64,000 nucleotides of DNA from Candidatus Heimdallarchaeota archaeon. GTDB taxonomy: Archaea; Asgardarchaeota; Heimdallarchaeia; Heimdallarchaeales; Heimdallarchaeaceae. Where the stretch lies: assembly GCA_019057815.1 (NCBI GenBank), contig JAHLWR010000003.1, positions 96,001-160,000 of the forward strand, written 5' to 3'. Below, in pieces: positions 37,195-53,511 of this stretch (position 1 is the stretch's first letter; the number at the start of each line of letters is the position of its first letter). The notes below the pieces were generated by a model. That model had not been told where the DNA came from and made no database searches. It saw nothing but the letters and a program-made list of their open reading frames with translations. The translations under genes were made by a program, and so were the position numbers.

Positions 37195-40100
37195 ATGGGT
37201 CAAACATTCTTATGTAAAGTTAATGCAAATGTGATTATGGTATTGTTTTTATTTACATTATTAACGCCCTTCATGTTTCATGACTATTCAACTAATCATT
37301 TCAACCAAATACAGACAAATGATTCCAGATACAATGATATTTGGGATGATTCTTTTTACAATAAGTTAAAATTAGATTATACTCCAATAAATAGTCTAGA
37401 AAGAACCGGTAGTATATTTTCAATTGAAGACGATATATCAGTACATCAAGTTGATTCCTTAAGTCTAGGAAATGGCAGAACAGATCAATTCACAATCTCC
37501 GGATTAACAGGATATTATGTAGATAGTTTATCGTATGATATGACTATAACTGGTAAGAAGGATATATATGAACAAAGAGATGTTTCAAACAAGGATGAAG
37601 TTCTCACATCATCAAATATCAGAGTTGCTCAAGCTTTTGATGTTCCTTGGGATAACGCCGTATTTTATGGAGCAGAAGTTAATTTGATTATTGACACTCC
37701 TATTGGTGGAGATGAACTTGAACTATTCATTGTAAAAGCAAGAGCTTCAGATGAAAAACCAAATATGGATGACATCAGAACAAATGCTACAAATGACCCT
37801 TATACCTTTTTAAACCCTATCAATGTAAGCGTTGATAATAATTTAGTTTATTACGATTTTCATGATGTGGTGTTAGAACAAGGTAAATATTTTGTAGTGG
37901 CGAATCTTTCAAAGATTGATGGAAATGATGGAACAGGTTTCAATTGGAGAGGACAACAAATGTCATTATTTGGAGATAGCTATAATCATGATGGAACAGA
38001 CTGGGGGGATACATTATATAAAGATTTATGCTTAAATATTCAACTTATGCCTTCTTTTGCAAATGGCACAGCATTTGTTTTTTCTGATCCAACAACAATA
38101 AGTCTAGAAGATGGTGGACAACCCATTACTTCCCTTACACAAACAATATCTTCTACCGGAACTCACACTTTATCTGCTGATACTTATGTTGATGTTGATT
38201 TGAATAATAGTTATATTTTCACAAGAACATATAGTGGTTCTTCTAGTTTTCAAGTGACCAATTCTACTTTCAATGAAGAAAGTGTAGATTGGTATATCTC
38301 TTGGAGTATTGATGCAGTAGATTTTTCATCCTATTCAAATCCAACAAGGTCACATACTCTACTCACTCCAAATGACTGGAATGAAACGGCACTCTCCTTC
38401 CTACTAGATACTATAACTCCTCTGCCAGGACAAAAACTCACTAATGGTTTTACTGTAGATTTGGTAAGTCTCCTTTCAGGAAACACTTATACAAGTGGAG
38501 ACATTTCATTTTCAACAACAAGTACAAATTATCTTTACGATTATACTCTAACAGATGGTTTTTTTGAAACTACAATTTTTAACCTTGGTTATTGGACGTA
38601 TAATACTACTCATGCTATAGGATATGAAGGCTCAACTGTTTCAGTTGATATCCTGATTAAAGATTGTACGTTAGCAGATATCACAACAGGTGAACTAAAT
38701 TTCACAATTTATAATTCAACCGGAGAGGTAATTCCATTTAAAACTTCAATTTACGCTAATCTCTCATATACAGACACTTCCAATTACACTATACTCTCAA
38801 CTACGCAAACAAGTGCTGGATTATATGAAGTGAATACTACATTTGATCCTTCAGTATACGGAACAGATGTTGAAGGTTACTGGACTGCAGTTTACTACTG
38901 GAATAATGGTACAGAAGTAGGTTTCTTCTCCAAAAGGATTACTGTTATTAAAGATACAGAAGCTATATTTGAATGGGAAGAACTTCCTGCAAATGGTGAG
39001 TGGTTCAATAATTCATTACAGGACATAAGAAGAATAAATGGTCATGATATTAGTATTAGAGTAGTTTATTATCATTTAAGTGACCCATTTTTCACAGGAT
39101 ATGGTACTCTTATCTCTGGCGGTGAAGTGTTTTTTTCCACAAGTTGGGGTGATAGTGGAAATCTTGTTTTTGATTCACCTTATTATGAATATAGTATTCC
39201 TACAGATTTTCCCCCATCTGATCATTTTATTTACATTGAAGCGATGGGGCAATTTTTAGAAAATCACACAATTAATTTTGTAGTTAAAATACTGCACCAG
39301 TTCACAATAGAGAATTTACAAACTGTTTATTATACAAATTACACAAATGAAGCGATAATTGAATTTAGGGTACTGGATGTTTCAAACTCAAGTGTTCCGG
39401 TTCTTCCTGATAGTATGATTTTCTCTCATAATGGTACTTCAATAGATTCAGCTGATTATTCGACTAGAATTCTGGGTGATGATACAATAGAAATTACATT
39501 TGAGACTGTTTCAATTCTTTCAAGTATAGATTCTCATGATATCGGTATAACAATCTCTAAAGCAGGTTTTATAGCAAGCTATACTGAGAATGATGCTGAA
39601 TCAAGTGTATCGCTTTCGGTTCTGCCAATAGTAACAGAAATTGAGATAGTTAATAGTGTTAGTTCTATAAATTATAACAATCAAACAACAGTATCTTTCA
39701 GACTTATAGACACGAATCATTCAACACACTTAACAGGGGCAAATTTCGAAATCCATGCTGATATTGAAGGTGTTGAAATAACTAGTCATTCGGAAGATGA
39801 AGGGCTCTATTTCTTCGTTGTAACAGTTCATGAACCTTCTCTAAGTTCTGTTAACATTTTCCTTAATATTACTAAGGAGGGGTATGTAGCAAAACAGAAT
39901 TATTTATTGACTTCTATAGGTATTACACCGGGAAGCACACAAACTAGCACTTTACCCCCTGATGAAGGTGCTCCCCTATATATGTACTTACTTATTGCAT
40001 TCTTTGCAGCTATTATAATTGGTGGTTCTGCCTTCTATATTTTTCAACGTAGAAGAAGCACAGCTATTAGAGAGAAAAAGGAGATCTATAAACACATTAG

Positions 40101-40761
40101 CAGCATTTATCAAAGCGTTTTATCTCTCAAAAAATTAATTGTTGTTCATACTGAAACAAGTCTACCTATTTTTGAAATGGATTTCAGTTCAGAAATAGAA
40201 GTAGACCCTTCTCTTATCAGCGGTTTTCTCCAAGCTGTTTCTACTATAGGCGGTGAAATGGTAGGTAAAGAAAGTGGAGGAGTTAAAAGAATAGATTATC
40301 AGGATTTAACAGTCACTAGTACTCTGGGTGGTAGATTCGTTATTCACACTTTTTCAGATGGCGAACTGTATGAGCATATTGAGAATAGGTTATCGAAAAT
40401 TGTTCAATGGTTTTCATTAATGTTTGGGAGTTCAGTTGAAGATTGGGATGGTTCAACAGAGATTTTCAGATTGAATAAAGAAGGAATAGCAGAAAAAATA
40501 ATGGGTGAAATCTTTCTGTGGCTCTTTTATCCACTAGATATTACAACTAAAGGAGTAGAGAACCTTGAAAATATGAAAGACCTTGAAAAAAGAATTTTCA
40601 CATTTATGCAAGAAAATGGTTCTTCAACAATGAGTCGAATTATTGACATCTTGGATGATCTTGAGTTAGAGGAAACCTTGATAGTATTATTTGACTTAGT
40701 CGATAAAGGTTACATAAAACCTAATTATTCTGCTTACGATATTGTAACAATAAGACTCTAA
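37195..40761 (+). CDS. Large single-pass surface glycoprotein with cytoplasmic longin and winged-helix domains
   Basis: Signal peptide; about 900 aa beta-rich Ser/Thr/Asn-rich ectodomain; TM segment at about 39976-40044; then LIVVHTETSLPIF...LISGFLQAVSTIG (longin) and a C-terminal wHTH (LFDLVDKGYI). Confidence 0.85.
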   Translation: MGQTFLCKVNANVIMVLFLFTLLTPFMFHDYSTNHFNQIQTNDSRYNDIWDDSFYNKLKLDYTPINSLERTGSIFSIEDDISVHQVDSLSLGNGRTDQFTISGLTGYYVDSLSYDMTITGKKDIYEQRDVSNKDEVLTSSNIRVAQAFDVPWDNAVFYGAEVNLIIDTPIGGDELELFIVKARASDEKPNMDDIRTNATNDPYTFLNPINVSVDNNLVYYDFHDVVLEQGKYFVVANLSKIDGNDGTGFNWRGQQMSLFGDSYNHDGTDWGDTLYKDLCLNIQLMPSFANGTAFVFSDPTTISLEDGGQPITSLTQTISSTGTHTLSADTYVDVDLNNSYIFTRTYSGSSSFQVTNSTFNEESVDWYISWSIDAVDFSSYSNPTRSHTLLTPNDWNETALSFLLDTITPLPGQKLTNGFTVDLVSLLSGNTYTSGDISFSTTSTNYLYDYTLTDGFFETTIFNLGYWTYNTTHAIGYEGSTVSVDILIKDCTLADITTGELNFTIYNSTGEVIPFKTSIYANLSYTDTSNYTILSTTQTSAGLYEVNTTFDPSVYGTDVEGYWTAVYYWNNGTEVGFFSKRITVIKDTEAIFEWEELPANGEWFNNSLQDIRRINGHDISIRVVYYHLSDPFFTGYGTLISGGEVFFSTSWGDSGNLVFDSPYYEYSIPTDFPPSDHFIYIEAMGQFLENHTINFVVKILHQFTIENLQTVYYTNYTNEAIIEFRVLDVSNSSVPVLPDSMIFSHNGTSIDSADYSTRILGDDTIEITFETVSILSSIDSHDIGITISKAGFIASYTENDAESSVSLSVLPIVTEIEIVNSVSSINYNNQTTVSFRLIDTNHSTHLTGANFEIHADIEGVEITSHSEDEGLYFFVVTVHEPSLSSVNIFLNITKEGYVAKQNYLLTSIGITPGSTQTSTLPPDEGAPLYMYLLIAFFAAIIIGGSAFYIFQRRRSTAIREKKEIYKHISSIYQSVLSLKKLIVVHTETSLPIFEMDFSSEIEVDPSLISGFLQAVSTIGGEMVGKESGGVKRIDYQDLTVTSTLGGRFVIHTFSDGELYEHIENRLSKIVQWFSLMFGSSVEDWDGSTEIFRLNKEGIAEKIMGEIFLWLFYPLDITTKGVENLENMKDLEKRIFTFMQENGSSTMSRIIDILDDLELEETLIVLFDLVDKGYIKPNYSAYDIVTIRL

Positions 40762-43388: not shown

Positions 43389-44303
43389 TTAAATTGAAGA
43401 AACAATTGCATATATTCCAAAAATTACTAAGTTTGCAATAATCGATGACCATAATATCTTCTTATTCCAAGTTTTAATGTATTGTCCATTGTTAATTCCA
43501 ATTGGTATTAAATTGAACAACACGTAGAAAAACATCAAAAAGGGGAATATGCTCAGTCCTTGGCGCATCTCAAGTGGGAATAAATCAGTGAGTAATGTTA
43601 CAATTGTAAAAATTTGAAAACCTAATATCCACATTATCCCACTCAAAGCTACTTTCCCTCTTTCTCTCACTTTAGCAGTAAAATCTCGGAAAACAAGAAA
43701 AGACGGGAAAATGATAAAAAGTATGAATATACTTACAATGCCTAGAAGTAATCCTTGTAACCACAAGACATTACTGCTACGAACTCCATAATGTCTTGAA
43801 AGAATTTTTTGTAAAACTAGATGACCTCCAAAAATTACCAGGACTCCAAAAAGAACAGTTAGAAAAGGCCATGGAAAGAGGAAATTCACTGGTTTTTTTT
43901 CAATAACAGCTACTCTAAACATCAGATGAAGGTACATAAAAAGAGCTACAGCAACTGTAGCTATTAAAATATTGTACATATTTGTTTTAAAACTATATAA
44001 TGTATAGAAAGAAGAACGAATTAAGAATCTATCCTCTGGTCTCATATAATTTGCTTTTTGATCCGAATCAACTTTTCTTACAAAGGTTTTTCTCTTAGTT
44101 TTTCTACTCTCAGATTCTTTTTTTGCTATCCTAGTAGTTGACAACTTAGCTTTTCTATATTCATCTGTTTGGAAAAACCCTACCATAGGGCAATCGTGTT
44201 GTTCTGCTAATCTATGTTTACCACAATAATATTGATTGCATAGTTTACATTTAAAAGGATAAACTTCTTCTTCATTGCACTCTGGATATGAACAATTCTT
44301 CAT
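43389..44303 (-). CDS. AN1-type zinc finger fused to an M50-peptidase-like membrane domain (degenerate)
   Basis: C....C...PFKCKLC...YC.KHRL.EQHDC; membrane part has HLVLQK, GKVALSG and FNLIPIGINNG. Confidence 0.75.
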   Translation of the reverse strand: MKNCSYPECNEEEVYPFKCKLCNQYYCGKHRLAEQHDCPMVGFFQTDEYRKAKLSTTRIAKKESESRKTKRKTFVRKVDSDQKANYMRPEDRFLIRSSFYTLYSFKTNMYNILIATVAVALFMYLHLMFRVAVIEKKPVNFLFPWPFLTVLFGVLVIFGGHLVLQKILSRHYGVRSSNVLWLQGLLLGIVSIFILFIIFPSFLVFRDFTAKVRERGKVALSGIMWILGFQIFTIVTLLTDLFPLEMRQGLSIFPFLMFFYVLFNLIPIGINNGQYIKTWNKKILWSSIIANLVIFGIYAIVSSI

Positions 44304-46396: not shown

Positions 46397-46969
46397 ATGA
46401 GGACAATGTCTATTTTTGGAGTAGTTAAAATAGTCTTAATGGGAGATTTTGCAACTGGAAAGACAACCTTAAAGCGATCATTTATGGGAATGCACTTAGA
46501 TGAAAGGTACATGAGTACACTAGGTGTAGATCTTGCTTCTTATAATCATCAAGATGAAGATATGACGATAAAATATCAAATTTGGGATTTGGGAGGTCAA
46601 GATGAATTCGTTAAAGTCAGAAGGAAACAGTATAAAGGTGCGGAAGGTGGTCTTCTCGTCTTTGATAAGAGTAGAGATATGACTTTTGAAAATCTAGATA
46701 CATGGTTAGATGAAATAAATTCTTCAATTGATCAATCAGTTTTTCTTTTAATACTAGGGAATAAAGACGACTTAGTATCTGAAGAGGTTAATAGAGAATG
46801 GGATGAAAAAGCATCAAAATATATCAAAGACAACATATCAACTTATCCACACATTAAGCTGTTAGGCTATTTTTCGACCTGTGCTTTACATGGTAGTAAC
46901 GTAGAGAAAGCTTTTGTAAAAATAGGAAGAGAAATTATCAAAAGAAAAAGTGACGATATGATTATTTAG
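46397..46969 (+). CDS. Rab-like small GTPase
   Basis: G1 GDFATGKTT, STLGVD, G3 WDLGGQ, G4 NKDD, G5 STCAL. Confidence 0.93.
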   Translation: MRTMSIFGVVKIVLMGDFATGKTTLKRSFMGMHLDERYMSTLGVDLASYNHQDEDMTIKYQIWDLGGQDEFVKVRRKQYKGAEGGLLVFDKSRDMTFENLDTWLDEINSSIDQSVFLLILGNKDDLVSEEVNREWDEKASKYIKDNISTYPHIKLLGYFSTCALHGSNVEKAFVKIGREIIKRKSDDMII

Positions 46970-47066: not shown

Positions 47067-47966
47067 ATGGCAGACAGTATAATTGGACAATTTATTGTTG
47101 GCTTATTGCCAATATTAGTTTTCGTAGCATTATATCTCGGATTTTATATATGGGGAAAAAGGAAAAATAAAAAGAAGAAAGAAGGATATATCGAAGATAT
47201 TGTAACTGCTATGGATCCATATATAGAAAATTATACTAGAAAAGACCCTTCTGATAGACAAGTTGAACTAAGAACGCAGTTAAGCGAAGATTATTTAGTA
47301 AAATCTGCATCTGCTTGGGTATTATTACTTCCAAGAACAAGTTTTCCAACAATGCTTGTTGACGGTTTATTTTTTAGAAATAAAGATTCTTTTGGTTTAG
47401 CAGCTAATTTCCCAGAAAAACCCAGAGTCATTTTTGAAGTAATACCTTATCGTTCAAGATCTGCTATTCGAAAGGATTTTGATTACCTTGTTGCAATTGA
47501 TGACATCGACACCCCAGATTCAGAAGTAAATAGTACCTATCTTATAAAATCAAACAAACCAAAAATCATTAATCAGCTAATTAGAAGTAAGACTTTCATA
47601 AAGACAATGAACGATTATCCAAAAATCATTCAATGGATTTCTATAAGGACTGATGAACCTCATTTTGAAATGAAATTTGAATTAACAGGGAAACAAGCAG
47701 ACTTACTTTCACTTACTAAATTCACTATGATTCTTTTGAAATTCTTTGGAAAAGTAATAGAAAACACAAAGAGTTTACCTATTCCAGTGATTCTCAAGAA
47801 AGAAACAAAGAAACTCTCTGATAAAGAAAAGGCTAAACAAGAAAAAGAAAAACAGAAATTCATGAAGGAAAGAGAAAAACGCAGAGAGAAAGCCCGAAGT
47901 AAGGAAGAAAAAGAAGCTAAGAAAAGATCTAAAGCTGAAGACAAAGCAAGGAGAAAAGCTAAATAA
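47067..47966 (+). CDS. CCDC47/DUF1682-like single-pass membrane protein
   Basis: N-terminal TM ending YIWGKRKN, alpha/beta globular domain, long charged C-terminal helix; co-linear with CCDC47. Confidence 0.65.
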   Translation: MADSIIGQFIVGLLPILVFVALYLGFYIWGKRKNKKKKEGYIEDIVTAMDPYIENYTRKDPSDRQVELRTQLSEDYLVKSASAWVLLLPRTSFPTMLVDGLFFRNKDSFGLAANFPEKPRVIFEVIPYRSRSAIRKDFDYLVAIDDIDTPDSEVNSTYLIKSNKPKIINQLIRSKTFIKTMNDYPKIIQWISIRTDEPHFEMKFELTGKQADLLSLTKFTMILLKFFGKVIENTKSLPIPVILKKETKKLSDKEKAKQEKEKQKFMKEREKRREKARSKEEKEAKKRSKAEDKARRKAK

Positions 47967-49021: not shown

Positions 49022-50557
49022 TTATTTTTCTTTTGGTTTAAAACTCAAAGCTTTAGCAATTACTTTGTTGATATTATTTGTGATATCTGAAGCCATCAGT
49101 CCATTACCAAATTGTTGAGATGCTAATTCACCAGCAGCTCCTGAGATATATGCACCTAAACATGCTGATGTATAAGAATCATTTGTAACTGAAAAGAGAG
49201 TTCCTATTATTCCTGTTAATACGTCCCCTGATCCTCCAACTGTCATCCCTGGGTGACCAGTCTTGTTGAATTTGGTGTTAAAACCGTCTGATATGATGTC
49301 TATCTGCCCTTTGACAAGAATTACTGTTTTGTATTTTAAAGCAATTTCAGTGACCAAGTTTGCATCTTTCCTTAAATCATTGTAAAACTTTTTGTTGAAG
49401 ACTTTACCAAATTCACCTCTGTGAGGTGTCAATATTGTATCATGCTTGAAAAGAAGTTGTAATTCGCTTTCAGATAGAACTGACAGGGCACCAGCGTCAA
49501 TAACGATTTGTCTTTTCATTTCACTCTCAAGAAGTTTATTAACACATTGATTGGTTTTTACAGAATCTTTCATTCCAGGACCTATAATAAAGGCTGAATT
49601 TCTAGTTTTATCTTCTTCCATGATAAGTGAAATATCAGAAGGGTCAATTTCATTTTCTTTTGCGGGAATTGTAATAAAATCTGGAGAATAAGCTGCTAAT
49701 ACATGTCTTATATTTTTCGGAGTTAGGATGAAGACTAGATCAGCTCCTGTTCGAAAAGCACCAAAACCAGCTAAAGCGGGTGCACCGATGTACTCATCGG
49801 ATCCTCCTATTATTGTTACTACACCATTATCTCTTTTATGACTATCATTCTTCCTTTTAGGATAATTCCATTTCAAATCTCCTAATCCTACATACGTTTC
49901 AGCTTCTTCTGGAATACCAATATCTTTTACAATTATTAGAGATTCAGAGAAATCATTTGATTCAACTTTGTTCTTTCCCAAACATACAATTTTCTCAGGA
50001 TTTGATATGAAAATAGTATTATTGGACGTAGGATTATATCCAGAGGGAGTATCTATAGAAATTATCTTTCCTCTAAAATGAGAGTTAAGATATTCGATTA
50101 ATGATTTATAGGGTTCTTTCGGTGTTCCTAAGATTCCTATCCCAAGAAGTGCATCAATAATGAGTTTATTATCATTGATATTACTTTTAAATTTTCCAAA
50201 TGCCTTCTTATCTTTAATTCTGATTATCCTTTCATCTGTTAATATTTCTGTTAGTCTTTCAAAGTTTTTTTGAGATGAGAGAGAATTAAACTTGTTTTTG
50301 TTTCCAAATAGAGCTAAGGAGCAGTTATATCCTTTGTTAATCAAGAGTCTTGCAGTTACTAACCCATCTCCTCCATTATTTCCATATCCCGCAACAATAA
50401 GAATACTATTTTTTTTTACTTGCGGAATATTAATAATTTCCTCAAATACAGCTTTACCAGCATTTTCCATTAATTTAATAATTGGAATACCCATAGCAAA
50501 AGCATTGTCTTCTAAAGCCCTTACTTCAATAAAAGTAAAGTATTTTCTTTTCATCAT
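49022..50557 (-). CDS. nnr: Bifunctional NAD(P)HX epimerase/dehydratase
   Basis: LMENAG, GNNGGDG, DALLG; HK..NG, GPG, IDAGAL, TPH.GEF, GGSGDVLTG. Confidence 0.95.
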   Translation of the reverse strand: MMKRKYFTFIEVRALEDNAFAMGIPIIKLMENAGKAVFEEIINIPQVKKNSILIVAGYGNNGGDGLVTARLLINKGYNCSLALFGNKNKFNSLSSQKNFERLTEILTDERIIRIKDKKAFGKFKSNINDNKLIIDALLGIGILGTPKEPYKSLIEYLNSHFRGKIISIDTPSGYNPTSNNTIFISNPEKIVCLGKNKVESNDFSESLIIVKDIGIPEEAETYVGLGDLKWNYPKRKNDSHKRDNGVVTIIGGSDEYIGAPALAGFGAFRTGADLVFILTPKNIRHVLAAYSPDFITIPAKENEIDPSDISLIMEEDKTRNSAFIIGPGMKDSVKTNQCVNKLLESEMKRQIVIDAGALSVLSESELQLLFKHDTILTPHRGEFGKVFNKKFYNDLRKDANLVTEIALKYKTVILVKGQIDIISDGFNTKFNKTGHPGMTVGGSGDVLTGIIGTLFSVTNDSYTSACLGAYISGAAGELASQQFGNGLMASDITNNINKVIAKALSFKPKEK

Positions 50558-51487: not shown

Positions 51488-52492
51488 GTGCCTTATAATA
51501 ATGCGTCATCAGATGTGAAAGGTAAAGCTCTTGATGTTCAGCTTTATATTGCTCAATGCGCTGTTCTAGCACATAATCTATTATATGTAACAGAACCTAA
51601 ACCTGGTGGAGCATCTTTTCATAAAAGTTTTACTGATACAAAAACTGAACATTTTTTAGCAGGTGGGAGCAGCTTGTTTGGTCCTATTTTTGAACTTTCT
51701 AAGAGAGGGATTTTAGTAGCTCAAAACCATCTATGGTACGATGATTCTGAGATAGGTTTGTTCATCACTAAAGCTCTAGACGGTGCAAAGAGATGGTACC
51801 AACCAATCGGTAATACAATTCTAGGGACAATTCTAATGTTTTCTCCCATTACAGTAAGCGTTGCACATTATTTTGCTAATGAAGGGATGAAAACTAACGT
51901 AAAACTAGATTTAGATGTTGTTGTAGCTTTGAGTGAAAGGTTCTTAAAAAATTCAACCACTGATGATTGTATACATCTTACTCAAGCTTTAACTAAAAAC
52001 GTATCTAACGACATTCTACCTTCAGATAAGGATGAAGATGATTTTTCCTCTTTTATTAGGATATATAAGCATCAAAGAACTAATTTGTACGATTTTACAA
52101 AATTCTATGAAGAAAGAGATTTAGTCTTTTATGAGATGAGTCATAATTATAAGACGACTATTGCAACTGGATTCAAAACACTAACTAAGGTCTATGAGGA
52201 AGAGCATGATTTAATGAAAGCAATTTCACACACTTATTTAACGTTGCTTGCAGAAAGGAAAGATACTCATATTGCAAAAAGATTTGGAAATGAAATCGCA
52301 AGCGAAATCCAGCAAATGGCGAAAAACATCGTGAAAGCCGGTGGAATATTCACTGTTGACGGTATGAAAATGATTGATGAACTTGATGATTACTTAAGAA
52401 ACTCGAGACCTAAAAAAATAAATCCTGGATCGATTGCAGATATAACAACTACAACTATACTTCTAGCATTATTAGATGGATACAGACCTTAG
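51488..52492 (+). CDS. CitG-like triphosphoribosyl-dephospho-CoA synthase family protein
   Basis: PKPG, NTILG, DTHIAKRFG, INPGSIAD. Confidence 0.85.
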   Translation: MPYNNASSDVKGKALDVQLYIAQCAVLAHNLLYVTEPKPGGASFHKSFTDTKTEHFLAGGSSLFGPIFELSKRGILVAQNHLWYDDSEIGLFITKALDGAKRWYQPIGNTILGTILMFSPITVSVAHYFANEGMKTNVKLDLDVVVALSERFLKNSTTDDCIHLTQALTKNVSNDILPSDKDEDDFSSFIRIYKHQRTNLYDFTKFYEERDLVFYEMSHNYKTTIATGFKTLTKVYEEEHDLMKAISHTYLTLLAERKDTHIAKRFGNEIASEIQQMAKNIVKAGGIFTVDGMKMIDELDDYLRNSRPKKINPGSIADITTTTILLALLDGYRP

Positions 52493-53511
52493 GAACGTAA
52501 CGTAAATATTTTTGATAATTCTTCAAAAGAATCAGCTGCGGATTTGTGTTCTTCAAAATCAAGAAATAATGTTCTATTTGGAAGTTTGAATATTATGCTA
52601 GCATTATTAGTCGTCATAATAAATTGAGAAAATAACTTAGTATTATACAAATATGAAAATCCTTCTTCTCCTGCCTTGAAAGAATCGCATAGAATTTTAT
52701 GTTTGTGTTTTTCTTTATCTTTCTTTAGGGATTCTAAAGAGCGTCTGGAATAGATTTCTATGTCTGTTGGGTTAAACCTTTCAAAGAAAGTATCCTTTAG
52801 TTGCTGGTTTGACTTTGTTTTAAATTCCTTGAAAGTGGAAACGTTGAAATCTTCTATTTTTATAGCTATTACAATAAAAACGTAGGGTAGACTAATTGTC
52901 AGTATTAGTGAACCTTCAAGAGATAGATGATATGCTATTCCCAATTTAGAATTCCATAAAGAGGCAGTTATTTTTCGTAGACACTTACTAAATAAGTGAA
53001 ATATGGCGAAACTGTCAAAATTATAGTTTTGTTCATGGGCTTGTACTACCAAAGTTTCTAAAGAATCTGAATAAATACCAAAAGCCTTTGATATTTTACT
53101 CTTTTCAAAAAATAATTCATTTGCTATATAGATCCCACATCGATCTAGTATTTTTCTGCATATACATTGAAAACCTCTGAAAACACTGACTTGACCTCGA
53201 AAGGCTACAAGTTGTTCTCTGTAGAGAGAGAGAAATTCATTGGAAATTTTTGTAATAAGATATTCTGCATACTCATAAGGCATATTATCTGAAATTTGAA
53301 AAATAAATACTAAATCCTCAGCTAATGACAAAATAAATTGACTTTCTTCGAGAATTACTCTTGAAATTTTCTCCTTTTCAGTTTCTTCTGCAAAACGTAA
53401 AAATCCTGCTAATAACCCCGAAACTAGAACTTCATCTCCTCTGGTATAATCTTCAAAATCAAAAAGTGGAATACCATCAGCTGTTATTATAAGGATTCGT
53501 TTGATCAACAT
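52489..53511 (-). CDS. Multi-longin/roadblock-domain protein
   Basis: N-terminal longin (ILIITADGIPLF...LVSGLLAGFLRFAEE...F.G.VSVF), followed by two further alpha/beta units of about 100 aa. Confidence 0.75.
   Translation of the reverse strand: MLIKRILIITADGIPLFDFEDYTRGDEVLVSGLLAGFLRFAEETEKEKISRVILEESQFILSLAEDLVFIFQISDNMPYEYAEYLITKISNEFLSLYREQLVAFRGQVSVFRGFQCICRKILDRCGIYIANELFFEKSKISKAFGIYSDSLETLVVQAHEQNYNFDSFAIFHLFSKCLRKITASLWNSKLGIAYHLSLEGSLILTISLPYVFIVIAIKIEDFNVSTFKEFKTKSNQQLKDTFFERFNPTDIEIYSRRSLESLKKDKEKHKHKILCDSFKAGEEGFSYLYNTKLFSQFIMTTNNASIIFKLPNRTLFLDFEEHKSAADSFEELSKIFTLRS

Follow-up and report, generated by a model that had tools for sequence, protein, structure and literature searches.

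CCDC47 (calumin) is a eukaryotic membrane protein of the PAT complex and of the multipass and SND3 translocons. It contacts rRNA H24 and Sec61 through a coiled coil that carries positive charge (PMC7505659), and in the structure of the fungal SND3 translocon it is seen without Asterix (PMC12572126). Archaeal homologues of the GEL complex are already known, and the same study states that prokaryotes lack PAT components (PMC9630114); PAT has also been stated to lack obvious bacterial homologues (PMC13261788). Our literature search, which left subscription papers and some supplements out of reach, found no paper on CCDC47 in Asgard archaea, and the subject is not mentioned in the text or supplements of Eme 2023, in the main text of Koestlbacher 2026, or in a 2026 structural-clustering preprint. 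A further described protein of related fold, mycobacterial TtfA, is an accessory of the transporter MmpL3 (PMC6593404).

The window analyzed here, a 64,000-nucleotide stretch of a Candidatus Heimdallarchaeota genome, contains a 299-codon open reading frame (P0001; positions 47067 to 47966, plus strand, stop codon included) that we judged to be real and that is flanked by a small Ras-superfamily GTPase gene and a DegV gene. On the basis of the ORF call, Pfam, an AlphaFold model, and a fold search, the gene product almost certainly belongs to the CCDC47 family, broadly defined: it combines a single membrane anchor with the globular domain of CCDC47 and has a basic extension at its C terminus. 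Its closest relatives (60 to 92% identity) are named Ca. Heimdallarchaeaceae or Heimdallarchaeota, and two close relatives bear the automatic NCBI name "DUF1682 domain-containing protein"; no NCBIfam model matches the 299-aa protein.

The sequence-only reading of this DNA had described a single transmembrane segment, a globular domain, and a K/E/R-rich C-terminal helix, all of which were found by hydropathy analysis and in an AlphaFold2 model (mean pLDDT of 91.3, with an input alignment of 43 prokaryotic sequences). The sole transmembrane segment covers approximately residues 10 to 29 (47094 to 47153, plus strand, as are all parts of this gene), with a Kyte-Doolittle value of 2.5 over residues 10 to 28; hydropathy and the start of the structural alignment place no signal peptide or lumenal domain ahead of it. 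Since this one hydrophobic segment is directly followed by a strongly basic stretch (residues 30 to 40), an N-out/C-in topology is predicted, which would leave the C terminus in the cytosol. Alignments of prokaryotic and fungal members define a G-x-x-x-N motif with a basic juxtamembrane helix (residues 30 to 52; 47154 to 47222), while the model, structure alignments, and conservation delimit a cytosolic alpha/beta globular domain with the CCDC47 fold (residues 53 to 233; 47223 to 47765). The proline-rich linker that follows (residues 234 to 251; 47766 to 47819) marks the minimum in model confidence, yet its mean identity within the Heimdallarchaeaceae is 0.73. Finally, the model, hydropathy, and tail comparison identify a long basic K/E/R helix (residues 252 to 299; 47820 to 47963) at the place where CCDC47 has its latch helices. 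The charged tail of about 60 residues noticed earlier is indeed present, with 39 K/E/R among the last 60 residues (net charge, +15) and a modeled helix from residue 252 to 298.

The Pfam model for CCDC47 (PF07946, formerly DUF1682) matches the full-length protein with an E value of 1.2e-8, and this is the sole match to that model in the genome; 14 control genomes yielded none. With the tail removed (residues 1 to 245), the match persists at 8e-7, with a score of 28.9 bits (cutoff, 27.7), and the isolated charged tail has no Pfam match, so that an artifact of the charged tail is ruled out and the homology withstands the masking that the sequence-only reading had named as its refuting test. Restricting the query to residues 30 to 240, i.e., without the transmembrane segment, weakened the E value to 0.024. 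All eight CCDC47-like motifs that had been quoted from the sequence are present and in order (at residues 27, 86, 106, 121, 133, 158, 180, and 212), and the register in which they had been aligned is the same as that in an alignment of a prokaryote-only profile to rabbit CCDC47, which is collinear with rabbit residues 141 to 329 and, at an E value of 0.11, not significant by itself. Identity to eukaryotic CCDC47 is only 10 to 14%. When the PDB was searched by sequence, neither the protein alone nor narrow profiles yielded a significant match (CCDC47 at E values of 2.3 and 0.11), a profile built from 24 fungal CCDC47 exons placed the gene only fourth in its genome (E value of 0.99), and hhalign against a fungal CCDC47 profile returned weak probabilities of 10 to 51%, mostly from the motif at the end of the transmembrane segment. 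This fungal set, for which loci were collected with a short motif taken from an alignment and from which animal, plant, and protist sequences were left out, was too narrow.

In the transmembrane segment, P15, F19, and Y23 are invariant in 23 sequences; immediately behind it, G30 and N34 are found in 54 and 42, respectively, of 55 diverse prokaryotic members, and the matching G and N are invariant across 19 fungal CCDC47 sequences. In the globular domain, R90 is invariant and D107 and P198 are nearly so. G30, N34, R90, and D107 are retained from bacteria to mammals.

A Foldseek search of the PDB with the AlphaFold model, a check that had been proposed from the sequence, returned only CCDC47 chains at E values below 0.001 (rabbit, 8.6e-10; Chaetomium, 9.1e-8; human, 1.3e-5), with TtfA next at 1.1e-3. 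PDB chains of CCDC47 are 7TM3/7TUT chain 4, 6W6L chain 7, and 9I78 chain 4. An independent structure aligner gave Z scores of 18.6 and 17.0 for CCDC47, 11.2 for TtfA, and about 7 for the rest; the rmsd in this alignment was high because the tail is differently placed. The match persists without the tail: residues 6 to 249 superimpose on a chordate CCDC47 model from the Atlas with a TM score of 0.66 and an rmsd of 3.7 Å, and a tail-less relative from Bathyarchaeia reached a TM score of 0.84 in structural comparison. TtfA (PDB 6T84) also combines an N-terminal transmembrane segment with a cytosolic domain of related fold, but its match to the Heimdallarchaeal protein (rmsd of 4.3 Å over 161 residues, 6% identity) is far weaker than that of CCDC47, and its role is tied to mycolic acid transport. 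DUF3137 (PF11335) likewise has a related fold (TM score of 0.66 to the Bathyarchaeia member) and matches a few archaeal relatives (best E value of 5.7e-10); neither the 299-aa protein nor its genome contains a match. Weaker fold matches, with Z scores of 6 to 7, were to YbjN-like proteins and secretion chaperones.

The likeness to eukaryotic CCDC47 thus comprises the single transmembrane segment, the G-x-x-x-N motif, the juxtamembrane helix, the fold and order of the globular domain, the conserved R and D, and a basic helical C terminus. The eukaryotic proteins, however, are 455 to 483 aa long, whereas the archaeal protein has 299 aa and carries neither signal peptide nor acidic lumenal domain. 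The absence of the acidic N terminus had been noted before and is corroborated by the structural alignment, which begins at rabbit CCDC47 residue 135, the archaeal transmembrane segment beginning at residue 10. As the missing regions lie outside the Pfam core, their absence marks a variant. The tail differs as well, being shorter than the eukaryotic one and consisting of one helix after a proline-rich linker, and its sequence does not match the latch of fungi significantly.

Downstream of the core, the tail comprises 66 residues with a net charge of +16 (the conserved linker plus one 47-residue helix), compared to 78 to 79 residues with conserved motifs in fungal CCDC47. On a profile of the fungal tails it scored 20.3 bits, against 18.0 +/- 2.8 bits for its shuffles, 21% of which scored as high. 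Tails from 12 of 13 family members scored above their own shuffle means on the fungal profile, the members not being independent of each other. Homology of the tail to the eukaryotic latch helices is therefore putative. Tails of such length (35 to 82 residues) are typical only of the Heimdallarchaeaceae; in sister families, basic tails are about 10 to 36 residues long and in some cases 0 to 3, and CstA-module and bacterial members have almost none. Since close relatives with tails of 0 to 3 residues exist (families f7, f32, and f33), the tail is dispensable in the wider family. As a rule, members of the stand-alone Asgard branch carry a basic tail, whose length varies. The more parsimonious and more likely view is that a short basic tail was lengthened in this one family, rather than that a complete latch was retained from an ancestor.

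The fold is found beyond archaea. A comparison with the ESM Atlas pointed to bacterial clusters, and homologues occur in Chloroflexota, Betaproteobacteria, Gemmatimonadota, and Actinomycetota, where their neighbors are CstA and two ATPases of the Get3/ArsA type; archaeal profiles detect these "mini-CCDC47" module members at E values of 1e-11 to 1e-32. CstA is present at 31 of 34 loci of module members, in a sample biased by the fact that the loci were collected via the neighboring CC-star gene. A Chloroflexota member of the CstA/ArsA module, folded from its own alignment (pLDDT of 93.8), aligns to CCDC47 with a Foldseek E value of 1.0e-9, a Z score of 17.5, and an rmsd of 2.6 Å over 211 residues, so that it matches CCDC47 as closely as the archaeal protein does. 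Because of this equal fit, the fold is not specific to Asgard archaea and cannot show an archaeal origin. Proteins of the CstA/Get3-ArsA/cory-CC-star module, which occur in bacteria and in Thor-, Sif-, and Bathyarchaeia, share the core, the G/N/R/D/P residues, and the fold with the Heimdallarchaeal protein but differ from it in being tail-less and in forming a separate branch of the tree. That branch, together with the absence of cstA and CC-star genes from the 95% complete source genome, rules out that the 299-aa gene belongs to such a module. The module itself looks mobile. Besides CstA, it includes a pair each of CC-star proteins and Get3/ArsA ATPases, along with a CCDC47-fold protein that has no tail; a 200-aa protein of unknown nature is present in some cases. 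The module may reveal the ancestral role of the CCDC47 core.

Of 83 Heimdallarchaeia genomes examined with profiles, 73 have the gene, as do 47 of the 51 whose completeness is 85% or higher. Most carry a single copy, although in one family two copies are frequent. The gene also occurs in several other Asgard families (with named members from Jordarchaeia, Hodarchaeota, Thorarchaeota, and Sifarchaeum), including 6 of 58 genomes of a Thorarchaeial family, and was found in none of the 106 genomes of the largest Asgard family, which we infer is probably Lokiarchaeia. In family f5, we observed two paralogues, one short-tailed, downstream of apparent E2-like and JAMM-like genes (identified by eye), the second CCDC47-like paralogue having a tail of 31 to 36 residues. 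A tree of 97 sequences, all of them noneukaryotic, contained a stand-alone Asgard group (46 rows; support, 98/81) in which the branching follows host taxonomy and the Heimdallarchaeaceae are nested deeply; bacteria formed one group (100/100) among the CstA-module archaea, with weak backbone support. The gene is thus inherited vertically within the stand-alone Asgard branch, which is distinct from the lineage that accompanies CstA/ArsA genes in bacteria and some archaea. As to which prokaryotic members are nearest to eukaryotic CCDC47, Pfam scores favor archaea over bacteria, while the structural match does not: the eukaryote-built PF07946 matches 26 of 43, 15 of 24, and 4 of 10 archaeal members in three sets and 0 of 10 bacterial ones, a preference in which base-composition bias may play a part, many bacterial rows being of atypical makeup. 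Profile comparison with 19 to 24 fungal CCDC47 sequences was too weak to rank the prokaryotic branches by their nearness to eukaryotes.

The gene directly upstream encodes a small Ras-superfamily (Rab-like) GTPase (46397 to 46969, plus strand; Pfam Ras, 8e-32), which ends 97 bp ahead of the 299-aa gene. The GTPase reported in the sequence-only reading is thus present; as a partner, however, it does not hold up. While the two genes are co-oriented neighbors, 41 to 150 bp apart, in the examined Heimdallarchaeaceae loci, the pairing is missing outside this family, and where a GTPase lies close by in two further families it is nonorthologous (BLAST rank 8 to 29, or unranked). We therefore rejected the GTPase gene as a conserved partner; it probably stands outside the CCDC47-like system and looks like an incidental neighbor. 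In the GTPase itself, the G5 segment reads TCAL, which is unusual, and the C terminus offers no cysteine that could be prenylated. At the loci examined, no conserved cargo or multipass partner gene and no small three-transmembrane gene was found, and at none of them was the CCDC47-like gene linked to secY or to genes for ribosomal proteins. It adjoins a KaiC/FlaH-like ATPase gene in four other Heimdall families, often with an NAD(P)HX repair gene as well, and such a repair gene also lies two genes downstream in the window (49022 to 50557). Elsewhere in the window, we noted an AN1-type zinc finger fused to a multi-transmembrane domain (43389 to 44303, minus strand), a large predicted surface protein with a C-terminal transmembrane segment and cytosolic domain (37195 to 40761, plus strand), and a 340-aa ORF (52489 to 53511, minus strand); the latter two have no Pfam match and appear longin-like on visual inspection.

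The proposed search for translocon partners was successful in part, in that a TMCO1/EMC3 homologue was found (contig C13; E value of 5e-20) but Asterix was not detected with PF03669. For Asterix (WDR83OS), this model gave nothing at E values of up to 10 in the 95% complete source genome and no match over the cutoff in 83 Heimdallarchaeia genomes, although a search of this kind might overlook a small membrane protein of divergent sequence; of seven weak matches, six run across stop codons. SND3/Pho88 was not found in the source genome, and TMEM147, a BOS subunit (PF09767), stayed under the cutoff with a best E value of 0.17. A SecY homologue is present elsewhere in the genome, as is an EMC6/OPTI homologue (L191:1342-1770, contig C43) at 24.4 bits (cutoff, 23.3), which, together with the TMCO1 homologue, suggests a putatively complete GEL complex. 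A TRAP-beta homologue (C48:186893-187336; E value of 1.3e-11), about 27 kb beyond the end of the window, sits directly beside an ArsA/Get3-like ORF (C48:185754-186635). Several Heimdallarchaeaceae genomes contain a second, divergent SecY with 44 to 52% identity to that of the source genome, some of them apparently split (G028:C68, G021:C204, G020:C209, G009:C94, and G027:C54), and family f4 (G035, G036, and G042-G046) has two TMCO1/EMC3-like copies per genome, one of them in a frame of approximately 480 to 495 codons. Prediction of a complex of the 299-aa protein with SecY and the TMCO1 homologue scored 0.24 against a mark of 0.32, which is uninformative either way.

The function that we tentatively favor is that of a housekeeping accessory of multipass membrane-protein biogenesis at a ribosome-SecY/GEL translocon, without Asterix. 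The anchor would hold the globular domain at the cytosolic face, beside SecY and the TMCO1/OPTI-type (GEL) insertase, and the basic helix might bind rRNA near the exit tunnel, as the CCDC47 coiled coil does. The protein could thereby keep ribosome, translocon, and insertase together and steer nascent helices off the SecY gate; since it would act without Asterix, it would supply a scaffold or latch but would lack the intramembrane-chaperone surface that the PAT complex provides. Consistent with such a role are the homology to CCDC47, the near-universal single-copy pattern, the host-following tree, the lack of a conserved cargo neighbor, the restriction of basic tails to the stand-alone branch, the presence of SecY, TMCO1/EMC3, EMC6/OPTI, and TRAP-beta in the genome, and the fact that both characterized fold relatives (CCDC47 and, with MmpL3, TtfA) serve multipass membrane proteins. 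Arguing against it are a tail that fits the fungal profile no better than shuffles do, the tail-less relatives, the lack of linkage to secY or ribosomal-protein genes, the absence from the 106-genome family, whose members need multipass proteins too, and the bacterial members of the same fold that sit in a transporter module. These last point to a possible, if rather doubtful, alternative that we consider nearly as likely as a ribosome-docked scaffold: a protein that, independently of the ribosome, assists or assembles one mature multipass protein or a small number of them. Its basic tail would then have been acquired later and would bind lipid or some other protein. TtfA, the next fold match after CCDC47, assists MmpL3 in this way, and the CstA/ArsA-module members, which match CCDC47 structurally as well, appear to do the same, but the source genome has neither cstA nor CC-star, the stand-alone branch is separate and follows host taxonomy, and no conserved multipass partner gene lies beside it.

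The sequence-only reading had gone further and seen in this protein an archaeal precursor of the ER multipass machinery. The CCDC47 homology stands, but three findings weaken the further claim of precursor status or a PAT-like complex: the core is also bacterial, the long tail belongs to one family, and no Asterix was detected. In its fullest form, a complete archaeal PAT complex would pair the protein with an Asterix-like three-helix protein undetectable by Pfam, the pair being the direct precursor of the eukaryotic complex. With CCDC47 itself barely passing the Pfam cutoff, a hydrophobic partner of 100 residues could be missed, and both the conserved transmembrane segment and the preference of the eukaryote-built Pfam model for archaeal members would suit such a pair; against the lack of PF03669 matches and of a small three-transmembrane gene as a conserved neighbor, we nevertheless consider it improbable. 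Scarcely more probable is an unrelated use of the fold, e.g., as a membrane anchor for RNA or as an adaptor that binds proteins, as in YbjN-like or type III chaperone-like folds. A common fold by itself shows no function, and the identity to CCDC47 is low, with YbjN-like and secretion-chaperone folds among the weaker matches; the residues kept from bacteria to mammals, on the other hand, suggest a retained binding surface near the membrane. That the Rab-like GTPase encoded upstream has its membrane receptor or effector in this protein, as the close, co-oriented spacing of the two genes might suggest, is highly improbable with the pairing confined to Heimdallarchaeaceae, no orthologous GTPase beside the gene elsewhere, and 37 small GTPase ORFs in the source genome.

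In summary, our analysis shows that the CCDC47 core is older than eukaryotes and is present in archaea and bacteria. The weight of this finding is limited in that we infer the function and that NCBI already labels some relatives automatically as "DUF1682 domain-containing protein". We speculate, as an unlikely extension of the translocon reading, that Heimdallarchaeia run a eukaryote-like multipass translocon in which the basic helix of the CCDC47 homologue attaches it to the ribosome while the protein latches SecY next to GEL, and that eukaryotic CCDC47 descends from the vertically inherited Asgard branch, Asterix or SND3 having been added later. With a CCDC47 core that predates eukaryotes, the origin of the ER multipass translocon becomes open to testing. 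The 299-residue protein, its tail-less relatives, and their bacterial cousins can be compared as a graded set to learn which region contacts the ribosome and what role the globular domain plays.
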